Both the position numbers and the translations under genes were made by a program. Positions 7,010 through 11,745 of a DNA stretch of 64,000 bases are shown here, one piece after another. The stretch lies in IMG/VR virus record IMGVR_UViG_3300031920_000373, positions 758-64,757 of that record; one strand, written 5' to 3'. Numbering within the stretch: position 1 is the stretch's first letter; each line of letters opens with the position of its first letter. This DNA comes from a virus. Below the pieces are notes generated by a model. It saw nothing but the letters and a program-made list of their open reading frames with translations, was not told the origin of the DNA and ran no database searches.

Positions 7010-7021
7010 AATGAACAGGTG

Positions 7022-7052
7022 GGAAGGGCGTCGGTTGTGATGGCGTCCTTCC
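7022..7052 (+). terminator. GC-rich hairpin, possible terminator or processing site
   Basis: GGAAGGGCGTC-N9-GGCGTCCTTCC directly after the stop of 6500..7009; U-tract weak. Confidence 0.45.
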
Positions 7053-7140
7053 TCTTAGGTTTCATTGTTTTAAGTGTTTATATGGGTTCTGAAATATTCA
7101 GGACGGATATAAGTATTTAAACAATAAAAGGAGATATAAA

Positions 7141-7785: not shown

Positions 7786-7845
7786 TTTGATTAAAATCGA
7801 AAATGGGTTTAGGAATCCTATTATAAGAAAAGGGGGTTAATTTTT

Positions 7846-8145
7846 ATGAGGAATGGAACAAAGTTTTATCGGACTTCTGGCGGCAAAAATATCAGGATGA
7901 AGGAGCTGGTTTTCCGTGGGGAGAATCTTGCAATTTGTCCGGCCTGTGGAAGTGGGAATGCCATGTTGTCTGGGAGCCGAAAAACCAGTGCCACAACGGT
8001 TTGCGATTCCTATAAATGCAGGGATTGTGGATTCAAGGTGGATGATCAGGATGCTGTCAAGATTTATACCGAATTGGATAAGCCCGGAATGGGCAATAAT
8101 AGCACCTATTCGGAAGTGAGGCGGGCCATTGGTCTTGGAAATTAA
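7846..8145 (+). CDS. Zinc-ribbon protein
   Basis: CPACG...CRDCG pairs. Confidence 0.65.
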   Translation: MRNGTKFYRTSGGKNIRMKELVFRGENLAICPACGSGNAMLSGSRKTSATTVCDSYKCRDCGFKVDDQDAVKIYTELDKPGMGNNSTYSEVRRAIGLGN

Positions 8146-8199
8146 TTCATTATCAGGTGATATAATTCGAGGATTGTGTCGCCGAATAAGGTGTTAATT
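8140..8199 (+). ncRNA. Conserved structured RNA hairpin, copy 1
   Basis: GGTGATATAAT-TCGAGG-ATTGTGTCGCC-GAATAAGG, with lower stem AATTAA/TTAATT. Confidence 0.6.
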
Positions 8200-8247
8200 T
8201 GTTAATTTATAAAGGAAATATAAATTGTTTATAACAGGAGGAAGCCA

Positions 8248-8403
8248 ATGAAATGGTTTTCAATTATTTGTTGGGCAATAGGTATTGGTACGTATATCCA
8301 TATCTATTCAATTCATACGAAAAATACAGATTATCCGACCTTCTTGGAGTTCTGTGGAATGACAATCAAGGCTGTATTTGAAAAATGGTTTATGTTCTCA
8401 TAA
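8248..8403 (+). CDS. Small membrane protein (51 aa)
   Basis: Manual translation MKWFSIICWAIGIGTYIHIY...; AGGAGG SD. Confidence 0.55.
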   Translation: MKWFSIICWAIGIGTYIHIYSIHTKNTDYPTFLEFCGMTIKAVFEKWFMFS

Positions 8404-8424
8404 TGAAAAAAAGGGGGTTATTAA

Positions 8425-8622
8425 ATGGGCAAGAAAATTGACCATCGTCCTTACCGGACAAACTCTCCTGGGATATTTATTATCCAGGATGTGGAGTTAA
8501 TTGAAACCACTGGTTGTGATAGTGATTATGTGATAAGGTTGAAATGTGGTGATGATCATTATTACCGTTGTTCCTGTGCTATCACATTTGAAAAGTCAGG
8601 TAAATTTCTAACTATAAAATAA
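8425..8622 (+). CDS. Hypothetical protein
   Basis: ORF with AAGGGG SD. Confidence 0.6.
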   Translation: MGKKIDHRPYRTNSPGIFIIQDVELIETTGCDSDYVIRLKCGDDHYYRCSCAITFEKSGKFLTIK

Positions 8623-8635
8623 GGGGGGGTCAAAA

Positions 8636-8908
8636 ATGTATGAGGATTGTCAATTACCAGAAGATTATAAACCATTGCCTGAGTGGGTTTCGGGGTGGGG
8701 ATGGTCTGACCAAAGGAATCATGAAACGTGGTATCTGTTTGATACAATGCCTACCGACTGGATAGAAATTGGGGATTACCATATCTGGGTCGATTTCCAC
8801 ATGTCCGCCAGACTCGTTCTTTTCCACGAAAAAAAGATGAGGAAGGAAATGAAGGCTTTTGAGGAATACCGAGACCTGATGGGTGAACTCCACGGAAGGA
8901 ATTATTAG
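8636..8908 (+). CDS. Hypothetical Trp-rich protein
   Basis: ORF with SD. Confidence 0.65.
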   Translation: MYEDCQLPEDYKPLPEWVSGWGWSDQRNHETWYLFDTMPTDWIEIGDYHIWVDFHMSARLVLFHEKKMRKEMKAFEEYRDLMGELHGRNY

Positions 8909-8922
8909 GAAGATCGTTTTAA

Positions 8923-8996
8923 TTGCTGTTTTAAGCGGCTTTTTTAATACTGATATCATAGTACTAAAAAACTTTAAAAAGCCGTTAAAACAGCAA
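8923..8996. repeat. Long imperfect inverted repeat with phased T/A tracts
   Basis: TTGCTGTTTTAAGCGGCTTTTTTAA ... TTTAAAAAGCCGTTAAAACAGCAA. Confidence 0.75.
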
Positions 8997-9065
8997 GGTT
9001 TTGACTCACAATTGATGGGTTTAATTAATATTGATCTATAAAGCAGAACAAAGGGAGATTTAAAA

Positions 9066-9398
9066 ATGGCAGAAGGAATTATCATGGGCAGAATGGACAA
9101 GGATTTGATTGATCATGGAATCCTGGCTGAAGGAGAGGTTGACAATGCCTCTCATGGAATAATCTTATTGAACCAATGGGCAATTCCACACTTTGATTGG
9201 GCCATAATAGTCAGAATAGGAGCGGTAAAAGTAAGTAAGACTACCTCAGAATACCTAATTGGAAGATTGAAGGAACTTTTGCCTGATCAAACTCGGGAAG
9301 TAATGATGCTCTGGCTAAACTATGGGTGGTCAATCAAAGAGGACATGCCTGATTGGCAGTGCTGGATTGACTTTTCCAAAATTGATTATAAATCGTAA
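9066..9398 (+). CDS. Hypothetical protein
   Basis: ORF with AAGGGAG SD. Confidence 0.7.
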   Translation: MAEGIIMGRMDKDLIDHGILAEGEVDNASHGIILLNQWAIPHFDWAIIVRIGAVKVSKTTSEYLIGRLKELLPDQTREVMMLWLNYGWSIKEDMPDWQCWIDFSKIDYKS

Positions 9399-9437
9399 AC
9401 CTAAATTAAGGGGGTATACCAAAAGGAAAACTATATA

Positions 9438-9499
9438 AGTTAAGGATTCTTATCAGGTAGCATAAATTGAGGTTTGTGCTACCGAATAAGGTGTTAACT
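9438..9499 (+). ncRNA. Conserved structured RNA hairpin, copy 2
   Basis: GGTAGCATAAA-TTGAGG-TTTGTGCTACC-GAATAAGG, with lower stem AGTTAA/TTAACT. Confidence 0.6.
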
Positions 9500-9516
9500 T
9501 TAAAAAGGAGGATGTT

Positions 9517-9741
9517 ATGGTTTCATTTCCAGGAATGAAAGGAATGATAAAGAGGAAGACTTCTTTTTACGACAGGGAGTTGCAAGGACTGGTACCAAAA
9601 AAGGGTATTAAACCTGAGATCAAGATCAAACTGGCAAATGAGGATAATAAATCCACTAAATGGATGAACCTTAATCTTGATAGTATTGAGAGCCTCCAGG
9701 CTTTCATTGACATAATCAAGGAAGACTTAGAAGGAGAGTAA
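9517..9741 (+). CDS. Hypothetical protein
   Basis: AGGAGG SD. Confidence 0.65.
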   Translation: MVSFPGMKGMIKRKTSFYDRELQGLVPKKGIKPEIKIKLANEDNKSTKWMNLNLDSIESLQAFIDIIKEDLEGE

Positions 9742-9929
9742 TGGCAGACGTATTCAAGGAATTAGAGGAGACTCATTCCCAAGGAGTTATCAGTATTGAA
9801 ACCGTTCCTGATATTGGTGTTATGAATGGTGATCTGGGAATCCAAATTGCACCCGATGGCCGTGTTTGGGTGTGCATTAATGGTATAGCATTCCTTAGGT
9901 TTAATCCAAATGTCAAATTGAAGGAGTAA
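9741..9929 (+). CDS. Hypothetical protein
   Basis: TAATG coupling to upstream gene. Confidence 0.65.
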   Translation: MADVFKELEETHSQGVISIETVPDIGVMNGDLGIQIAPDGRVWVCINGIAFLRFNPNVKLKE

Positions 9930-10107
9930 AAATTGCATATCTTCAAATTATTGAGGTGGTTATATTCTTATAGGTACCCCGTGGTGCCCCCAATTAAGGT
10001 TATGAATATCAAACCTAAAACAGGCATCTTGAATCGTAAACCAAATACCAATATCAAACAACCCACAAGTAGGGCAGGGTTTAAAAGAGGAAACAGGAGA
10101 AATTAAG

Positions 10108-10431
10108 ATGGAAAAACTGTTCGGAATGCAGAAGATGGAAAACATGACTGACCTTGAGTTTGCAAAATATCTCAAGGCTAAGGATCCAAATTGGACTTGG
10201 GATTCAATTAATGACTTTAACAGGTTCATGGCACATGGGAAGGTGGTTGCTGTTGTCAAGTACCATAACAGCTATCCCGTTGGAAGAGTGATCTGGGTTG
10301 AAATTGAAAAGAAAGTCAAGAAGGAACGAGAAAAGACAAATACGGACGGGTGTCCTGAATGTGGAAGACCTTTAAAGATGGTGGCAAGTGGAGTCAGGTG
10401 TGATGGTTGTGGGTATGCATTCTGTTTTTAA
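10108..10431 (+). CDS. Hypothetical protein with C-terminal zinc ribbon
   Basis: CPECG...CDGCG; AGGAG SD. Confidence 0.7.
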   Translation: MEKLFGMQKMENMTDLEFAKYLKAKDPNWTWDSINDFNRFMAHGKVVAVVKYHNSYPVGRVIWVEIEKKVKKEREKTNTDGCPECGRPLKMVASGVRCDGCGYAFCF

Positions 10432-10484
10432 TTAATTATAAGGTGATATGATTTAAGGATCGTATCGCCGAATAAGGAATTAAA
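10428..10484 (+). ncRNA. Conserved structured RNA hairpin, copy 3
   Basis: GGTGATATGAT-TTAAGG-ATCGTATCGCC-GAATAAGG, with lower stem TTTAATT/AATTAAA. Confidence 0.6.
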
Positions 10485-10503: not shown

Positions 10504-10538
10504 TTGACTATTACGTTTTTTTATGTAATAATGTGTAT
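10504..10538 (+). promoter_or_regulatory. Class I (early-type) promoter
   Basis: TTGACT-N17-AATAAT with conserved TTATGTAATAATGTGTAT. Confidence 0.75.
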
Positions 10539-10581: not shown

Positions 10582-11745
10582 ATGCCCACCTATGAAGCAA
10601 AGGTAAGTGATTACAAGTGGACCAAATTCAAAAAAAAGTTCAAGGATTACAAAAAGAGGGCTGAAAAACTTGGCTTTCCTGAACCTACTTACAAGATCAT
10701 CAAAGATTTTGGAGAGCCTGCAAAGGGTTGTACTCCTCTTTCCCATGTTTATCGTTTCAGGATTCTTGAAATTACCTATGAAATGCCGATCATTGATGGC
10801 TGGGAAGTAGTAGGAAACAGAGAGAGAATTGACGGGAAAATCTTTACCAACGTAGTAACGGGTGATGATTGCACTAACTTTCATAAATCAGATCTAATAG
10901 GGTGCGGTCATTGCCATACAAATCGGTATAGGAACAAGTCAATCTTGCTGAAAAACAAAGTAGATACCATTATGGAAGTTGGATCTACATGTGTAATTGA
11001 CTTTTTTGGACACAAAGTAACCAACCTTGATTGGTTCGTGGAAAGGCTCTTTGAAGGTAATGAGTGGAGCAACGTCGGCGGTGGAACATATAGTTTCAAT
11101 CTTGAGCAGGTTCTTGAATATGCATCATTCTATATACGAAAATTCGGCTATCAAAAGGCCAGCGGAGAAGGTGAAGGAACATACAATACCAAAGAAAGAG
11201 TTTGGGATTGTCACCTTGAACCTCATTTCAGGAGTACACAATTTATCAAACCTGATGTGTCCGTGGAAGATGAAAAAATGGCTCTTGATACGATATGTCA
11301 CTGGAAGGGGATGAATGCTGAGGAGAATTACTCCAATTCATATATTACCAATCTGATAAAAATTTCCCAGGAAGAAACAATGAATCCCAAATTACTTGGG
11401 TATGCAGTATCAATGGCATCCTCTTATCAAATGTATCTGGAAAAAAGGGCCGCAATGAATGCTCGTATTCAGCTTTCCAAATATCAAGGACAGATCAAAG
11501 ACAGAATAAAGGGTGTTCCTGTCAAGCTGACATTCAAGAAGGGATGGGAAACAATGTTCGGATGGACTGACCTGATGTCATTCACTGACCTTGATGGAAA
11601 CGTGTATGTCACATTCTATAAAGGAACAAAGTCAACTCCCGAACAAGGACAGAACATTGTACTTGATGGCACCATTGTTGATCATACGGAATATAAAAAC
11701 GTGGAACAAACAATCGTTAACAGAATAGCCTGGAGGAAAGTTTAA
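10582..11745 (+). CDS. Phage protein with Cys pair (CGHC) and C-terminal OB-fold-like domain
   Basis: 387 aa; beta-rich C-terminus (SFTDLDGNVYVTFY...IVLDGTIVDHTEYKNVEQTIVNR). Confidence 0.6.
   Translation: MPTYEAKVSDYKWTKFKKKFKDYKKRAEKLGFPEPTYKIIKDFGEPAKGCTPLSHVYRFRILEITYEMPIIDGWEVVGNRERIDGKIFTNVVTGDDCTNFHKSDLIGCGHCHTNRYRNKSILLKNKVDTIMEVGSTCVIDFFGHKVTNLDWFVERLFEGNEWSNVGGGTYSFNLEQVLEYASFYIRKFGYQKASGEGEGTYNTKERVWDCHLEPHFRSTQFIKPDVSVEDEKMALDTICHWKGMNAEENYSNSYITNLIKISQEETMNPKLLGYAVSMASSYQMYLEKRAAMNARIQLSKYQGQIKDRIKGVPVKLTFKKGWETMFGWTDLMSFTDLDGNVYVTFYKGTKSTPEQGQNIVLDGTIVDHTEYKNVEQTIVNRIAWRKV

Follow-up and report, generated by a model that had tools for sequence, protein, structure and literature searches.

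A repeated intercistronic RNA hairpin with covarying stems in the early genes of an uncultivated phage lineage, a candidate processing signal

Introduction

The RNase III substrates of phages T7 and SP82 that contain internal loops receive a single cut, on the downstream side, according to PMC1935012. Two further papers place several RNase III sites in the early mRNA of SP82 (PMC4838370, refs 19, 20) and ascribe the stabilisation of SP82 mRNA to a sequence resembling a ribosome-binding site (RBS; PMC7509114, citing Hue et al. 1995). In T4-like phages, a plastic region of small early genes contains short conserved repeats in its intergenic spaces, the promoter-early stem-loops (PeSLs), whose flanking genes vary (PMC2839356, PMC4122927). 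Here we describe a hairpin of about 60 nt that occurs three times in a 64,000-nt stretch of DNA (the window), which comprises bases 758-64757 of the 101,489-bp IMG/VR virus record IMGVR_UViG_3300031920_000373 (estimated completeness 76%). The element is a real RNA motif that is not listed in Rfam, and it is most likely of an already known kind, a processing signal.

Results

A common fold in three copies

The sequence-only reading had described three copies of about 60 nt each, and all three were recovered with the following extents and helices (scores are covariance-model scores):

8139-8200, + strand: copy 1 (74.5 bits, E 2e-15)
8139-8146/8193-8200, 8150-8153/8186-8189 and 8156-8167/8172-8183, + strand: lower stem, UUAU/AUAA helix and upper stem of copy 1
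9437-9500, + strand: copy 2 (72.8 bits)
9437-9443/9494-9500, 9448-9453/9486-9491 and 9456-9467/9472-9483, + strand: lower, middle and upper helices of copy 2
10427-10484, + strand: copy 3 (73.6 bits)
10427-10433/10478-10484, a UUAU/AUAA helix, and 10442-10453/10458-10469, + strand: lower stem, middle helix and upper stem of copy 3

The three copies share one fold on the + strand. A lower stem of 7-8 bp around UUAA/UUAA is separated by a variable internal loop from the UUAU/AUAA helix (4-6 bp), and this in turn by a 2x2 loop with CA or AA opposite GA (CA/GA in copy 1, AA/GA in copy 3) from an upper stem that can be drawn with 11 bp and a hexaloop or, equally, with 12 bp, a closing U-G pair and a tetraloop. 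The exact sequence CCGAATAAGG occurs at 8182, 9482 and 10468 only, both in the window and in the entire record. Minimum free energies (MFE) on the + strand are -21.3, -26.2 and -22.2 kcal/mol for copies 1, 2 and 3 (z = -4.6, -7.1 and -6.8; none of 200 shuffles as good), and on the minus strand just -5.9, -19.1 and -11.7 kcal/mol. Pairing persists while the stem sequence varies, as had been claimed: each of the 48 core pair cells of the three copies is paired, with both partners changed at five pairs. A degenerate fourth copy, suspected at 9962-10009, was rejected because it does not fold better than shuffled sequence (z = -1.0) and neither of our two covariance models reports the region, even at E <= 5-10 with filters off.

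A search of the window against Rfam 15 gave no match at the gathering threshold and nothing relevant at E <= 10, the best sub-threshold matches being to microRNA or small nucleolar RNA models with E of about 1. A hidden peptide, a read-through signal and a frameshift signal were rejected, since the reading frames across the copies end within a few codons.

The 5' arm of the upper stem resembles an extended -10 box (TGnTAYAAT) in several copies (8158-8166 and 10444-10452 in the window, and in the related contig L006). A promoter at this position was set aside because a transcript begun there could not form the covarying hairpin; several copies also have no match to the box. The likeness is probably a by-product of composition.

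Distribution among related phages

Relatives were collected through three proteins: the 387-aa protein encoded at 10582-11745 (contigs L006-L009, L010, L011 and L063), the 110-aa protein (L065-L068) and the 212-aa protein of L010 (L071 and L070, the latter part of a 103-kb contig). A covariance model built from the three window copies, R1, scored the three copies of L006/L066 and two of L010 at 61-75 bits, and divergent copies in L010, L011 and L065 at 24-33 bits; a second model, R2, added two copies in L070. All accepted copies score 24 bits or more, and the close ones 61-75 bits. The model search that the sequence-only reading had proposed yielded ten further copies, all distinct, from five metagenomic contigs of related phages. 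A weaker variant at L006 3605-3651 (15-18 bits) shares its loop motif and its place before homologous genes with the variant at L010 1673.

Outside this group the searches returned little. Two pattern scans of IMG/VR found no match beyond the window phage's own record. The 31 loci from JGI metagenome contigs and the 15 from GTDB (one genome per species) were all chance matches at <= 22 bits. No copy was found in the IMG/VR relatives L004 and L005, which were identified through the DNA polymerase and cover other parts of the genome, nor in L064, a distant relative by the 387-aa protein, nor in the short contig L063. Because the pattern scans gave chance matches only, the family is, within the reach of these collections, restricted to one small clade of uncultivated phages.

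Covariation and the folded strand

The analysis of covariation used the 13 distinct copies from the window, L006/L066, L010, L011, L065 and L070, six phage genomes or contigs in all. Standard pairs occupy 99.5% of 201 pair cells in an alignment that was fitted to the covariance model and hence favours structure. Changes on both sides are seen at 10 of the 16 pairs (29 cells), and none of 500 column shuffles reaches any of five covariation measures. When the pairing partner is slid by 1-3 columns, pairing falls to 35-59%. Independent MFE folds that included the flanks returned the same three helices in all 12 copies folded, with a total of 21-25 bp in three coaxial helices in each, and the two L070 copies folded likewise.

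The pair cells include 27 G-U combinations and no A-C combination. The + strand is more stable than the minus strand by 4-15 kcal/mol in every copy, and every copy has the orientation of its flanking genes. What folds is therefore the sense strand, in the simplest case as mRNA, and the RNA structure is under selection. The sequence-only reading, which had proposed an uncharacterised structured cis-element, is borne out to this extent: a sense-strand RNA with covariation in 13 copies that matches no known Rfam family.

Conservation is not limited to the pairs. An A and a G that face each other beside the upper stem, and a G that follows AUAA, are unpaired and invariant in 13 of 13 copies, and the loop ends in RAGG in most of them. 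The L065 copy has the loop UCU, with no GG and no RAGG-type motif. The upper stem is mostly 11-13 bp long across the family (8-9 bp in two copies).

Placement between early genes

All 13 copies lie on the coding strand in spacers between small early-gene open reading frames (ORFs). In the window the relevant features are:

7846-10431, + strand: block of small early genes (99, 51, 65, 90, 110, 74, 62 and 107 aa) that holds all three copies
9399-9445, + strand: relic of a deleted 113-aa gene, namely its Shine-Dalgarno (SD) sequence and last ~22 nt with the relic stop, identified by alignment with L006
10504-10532, + strand: sigma-70-type promoter, TTGACT-17-AATAAT with TG, one of five repeated promoters

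The stop codon of the upstream gene lies 0-4 nt from the core, that is within the lower stem, in 9 of the first 12 copies. Two of the window copies had been said to begin on a stop codon, and this is so: the lower stem of copy 1 contains the stop (TAA 8143-8145) of the 99-aa Zn-ribbon gene, and that of copy 3 the stop (TAA 10429-10431) of the 107-aa gene. Copy 2 abuts no live stop because the gene upstream of it was deleted. Relative to L006 (4652-5014), the window has lost 322 nt of the 113-aa gene by a clean deletion between CAAAA microhomologies, and the stop contained in the lower stem of copy 2 is the relic of that gene.

On the downstream side, the start codon of the next gene is 18-22 nt past the core in six of the first 12 copies, with the SD starting 3-8 nt after the lower stem; both L070 copies also have an SD and an ATG close downstream. 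Behind copy 2 the SD of the gene at 9517-9741 begins 3-4 nt beyond the lower stem. This leaves no room for a promoter, and transcription must therefore read through copy 2. Copy 3 and its counterpart at L006 5954 are followed by a promoter. The promoter at 10504 lies 20 nt past copy 3, is separate from the hairpin and opens the next transcription unit.

The proteins of the small-gene block have almost no family matches. Upstream of the block is a gene-free region with a 20-bp repeat array, and downstream is the first of the five near-identical sigma-70-type promoters. These strong promoters (TTGACT...TATGTAATAAT; window 10504, 13610, 17718, 20809 and 24104) start successive transcription units beyond the block and are kept in relatives (L006 ~6030, L010 3452, L070 ~12005).

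The genes on either side of the copy-2-type element differ among phages. Those downstream of it are mosaics (L070 10001-10876, L065 464-901, L010 2798-3436, window 9517-10431), which share a Cys-rich module at the C-terminus but have unrelated N-terminal parts, or have the parts split into separate genes, depending on the phage. A second repeated motif, in the 5' untranslated region, with the approximate consensus AATTCGGTTTTGGATTYG.AATT..AATAAAGGRGG, immediately precedes the SD in several of the relatives' small early genes (L010 130-175 and 1722-1760; L070 7330-7372 and 7885-7929; L006 3655-3699) and is weakly present at 7786-7845 in the window.

Transcription termination and antitermination

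The hairpins are unlikely to be ordinary terminators. Their basal stem is A-U rich, a terminator scan calls no copy, and members of the copy-2 type have no U-run. The earlier statement that the element is without a U-tract is largely right, although in copies 1 and 3 the A-U-rich lower stem is followed, after a few bases, by U-rich runs.

Another possible role at transcript ends would be a passive one, in which the hairpin shields the upstream cistron from 3' exonucleases in the manner of repetitive extragenic palindromic (REP) sequences and acts as a weak, leaky terminator at copies 1 and 3, with no endonucleolytic cut. A stable hairpin that starts at the stop codon in most copies fits this proposal, as do the positions of copy 3 and L006 5954, which close the small-gene block ahead of a strong promoter and in which a U-run is found 5-8 nt beyond the stem; at L006 2578 the U-run directly follows the stem. 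We nevertheless consider it quite improbable. A barrier needs a stable stem alone, which leaves the invariant internal loop and its flanks unexplained. Wherever a U-run occurs, the stem beside it is A-U rich and the scan calls no terminator; the copy-2-type members, which have no such run, must be read through; and no hairpin precedes any of the other four repeated promoters.

Two further hairpins of the region were noted. A GC-rich, terminator-like hairpin of 13 bp follows the 169-aa gene at 7021-7053 in the window, and its counterpart in L070 (7026-7082) is a classic terminator with a GC-rich hairpin and a U-run. Given these two structures, conventional intrinsic terminators exist in this phage group, and termination appears to use a signal separate from the element. 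The other is an A-U-rich hairpin or palindrome of ~70 nt at 8923-8996, in the 157-nt spacer between the genes at 8636-8908 and 9066-9398. It is kept in L006 (3947-4012) and has a terminator-like stem and T-run on both strands (z = -3.4 and -3.2).

Antitermination sites like lambda nut or HK022 put had also been suggested, and they fit poorly. The copies follow stop codons within one gene block, none stands behind any of the five repeated promoters, and the anatomy is neither that of a small boxB hairpin nor that of a two-stem put RNA.

A possible role in the exchange of early gene cassettes

The variable flanks raise the possibility that the element acts in DNA, as a recombination module or small mobile element that exchanges early gene cassettes; it could be PeSL-like, attC-like or a miniature inverted-repeat transposable element with TTAA ends. 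The copies are ~92% identical where the neighbouring proteins are 50-66% identical, the flanking genes differ between phages, and the lower stem is built on TTAA...TTAA. The copy-3 slot is moreover polymorphic for presence, being empty in L010, where the stop is directly followed by the promoter, and in L063. We find a DNA-level role very unlikely all the same. The 27 G-U against no A-C cells and the uniform sense orientation indicate RNA rather than duplex or bottom-strand DNA, and compensatory stem changes would be unexpected of transposase-bound ends. The record, which is 76% complete, yielded no tyrosine recombinase. The one indel that could be mapped precisely broke at the CAAAA microhomology, away from the element.

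Specific classes fare no better. Like a PeSL, the element is a short conserved intergenic repeat amid small early genes with flanks that differ among relatives. A PeSL is, however, a composite of strong promoter and terminator, whereas only the copy-3 type of the element adjoins a promoter (window copy 3 and L006 5954), the four other window promoters have no hairpin and no copy is called a terminator; the 322-nt deletion likewise did not use the element. A PeSL cassette was rejected on these grounds. An integron site of the attC type was rejected on the top-strand bias in G-U over A-C, on a core of GTTAAY rather than GTTRRRY, and on the lack of a PF00589 match in the incomplete record. Incidental crossovers may nonetheless occur in the conserved 50-nt repeats, as they do in the PeSLs of T4-like phages.

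Comparison with early-mRNA processing sites

Of the functions that the sequence-only reading had listed, processing by RNase III fits best, on anatomy and placement relative to folded T7 sites. For this comparison we folded five T7 early sites (R0.3, R0.5, R1, R1.1 and R1.3), at positions that we take to be those of Dunn and Studier 1983, as the T7 record carries no annotation of them. The folded sites have a variable upper stem of 9-13 bp with a small loop and a lower stem of 4-9 bp. Their sequence is conserved around the base of the upper stem, where four of the five have an internal loop (R1.3 has none).

The likeness to the element is one of architecture. Each is a hairpin repeated in similar copies between the cistrons of a polycistronic early mRNA, about two helical turns long, with a variable small-loop upper stem, conserved sequence at an internal loop and a lower stem. 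The sequences themselves are not similar. The element has an extra middle helix of 4-6 bp and a longer upper stem (the two copies with 8-9 bp apart), and its 2x2 loop, which contains the invariant A-G mismatch, is small and symmetric where the T7 loop is larger and asymmetric. The SP82 early-mRNA sites for Bs-RNase III, which are compared here through secondary citations, are similar in that several internal-loop hairpins occur in early mRNA. In the same sources, SP82 has a purine-rich, RBS-like stabiliser, to which the conserved GAAUAAGG tract on the 3' side of the element's loop may correspond. The element shares with sites of the T7/SP82 type a hairpin of about two turns with an internal loop and an intercistronic place in the sense strand of a polycistronic transcript.

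We propose, with moderate confidence, that the element is a processing and stabilising signal of the host RNase III type on early mRNA. The hairpin would act in cis in the sense-strand RNA of a polycistronic early transcript, and its three coaxial helices (21-25 bp) with a small conserved internal loop would form the substrate of a double-strand-specific endonuclease. The enzyme would most likely be host RNase III. No homologue of RNase III, dsRBD or CsrA was found in the 76%-complete phage record, which makes a host enzyme the economical actor; a search of the record for a RegB homologue also gave no match, but its control was silent too and the search is uninformative. By analogy with the internal-loop sites of T7 and SP82, one cut would fall on the 3' side near the conserved loop. 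The upstream cistron would then end in a protective 3' hairpin, which would presumably stabilise it, and the downstream cistron would begin with the purine-rich, SD-like GAAUAAGG tract ahead of its own ribosome-binding site.

A more elaborate scheme would make the element a two-part cut-and-protect cassette, or else the target of a sequence-specific factor or the operator of an early protein. In the former, the A-G mismatch and the UUAU/AUAA helix would position one cut, and the SD-like GAAUAAGG, perhaps with the RAGG loop, would recruit a 30S subunit or another protein that shields the new 5' end; the parallel with SP82 is one of analogy only. In the latter, the whole motif would be the operator of an uncharacterised early phage protein, for example one of the adjacent Zn-ribbon proteins. 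We regard this scheme as quite improbable.

Several observations weigh against RNase III-type processing. The invariant unpaired residues and the RAGG loop could mean a sequence-specific protein, and the sequence constraint exceeds what RNase III is generally thought to need, an objection tempered by the similar sequence conservation of the five folded T7 sites. The element is present at just 2-4 of ~15 early junctions per phage, and the empty copy-3 slot in L010 and L063 shows it to be dispensable at a given junction.

Owing to the invariant unpaired residues, the main rival is a binding site for a dedicated RNA-binding protein, from the host or an early phage gene, that would recognise the element by its sequence. 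The site would then be a translational operator or another regulator of the gene directly downstream, or else the target of a phage endonuclease. Unpaired residues, namely the A-G mismatch, are invariant while the stems vary, and the same holds for the UUAU/AUAA helix and for the purine tract, with its G, on the 3' side. The next SD is 3-8 nt past the lower stem in half of the copies, the deletion that removed the gene upstream of copy 2 left the copy and its downstream gene together, and Zn-ribbon-like genes directly precede copies 1 and 3. Set against this, neither the neighbouring genes nor the record as a whole gave a match to a known RNA-binding family, the downstream genes vary between phages, and L065 is without the loop motif. 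A promoter also separates window copy 3 and L006 5954 from the next gene, so that the main mRNA of that gene would lack the site. We consider such a binding site unlikely on balance. CsrA/RsmA, whose binding hairpins have GGA in the loop and a second GGA site, was compared as one known protein of this kind: the loop contains GGA in most copies, AGGU in window copy 2 and no GG in L065, the 3' tract is mostly AAGGU, and csrA was not found in the phage record.

The phage lineage

The DNA of the record was found in marine-sediment metagenome runs and in no RNA run. A DNA-level search of a phage database gave no match to the window phage, and cultured phages have only distant proteins in common with it, at ~24-28% identity; the window DNA polymerase is ~24% identical to those of T5-like phages. 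The lineage consists of ~100-kb phages with 7-deazaguanine DNA-modification genes and has no cultured relative.

Discussion

By itself the element opens no long-standing question. With it, a covariation-supported motif that Rfam does not list joins the small group of phage signals for processing or stability between cistrons. Its compact arrangement of stop codon, hairpin and SD could be an insulator part for synthetic operons. If the proposed cleavage is true, the shaping of early mRNA in the style of T7 and SP82 would have been reused, with unrelated sequence, in distant phages.

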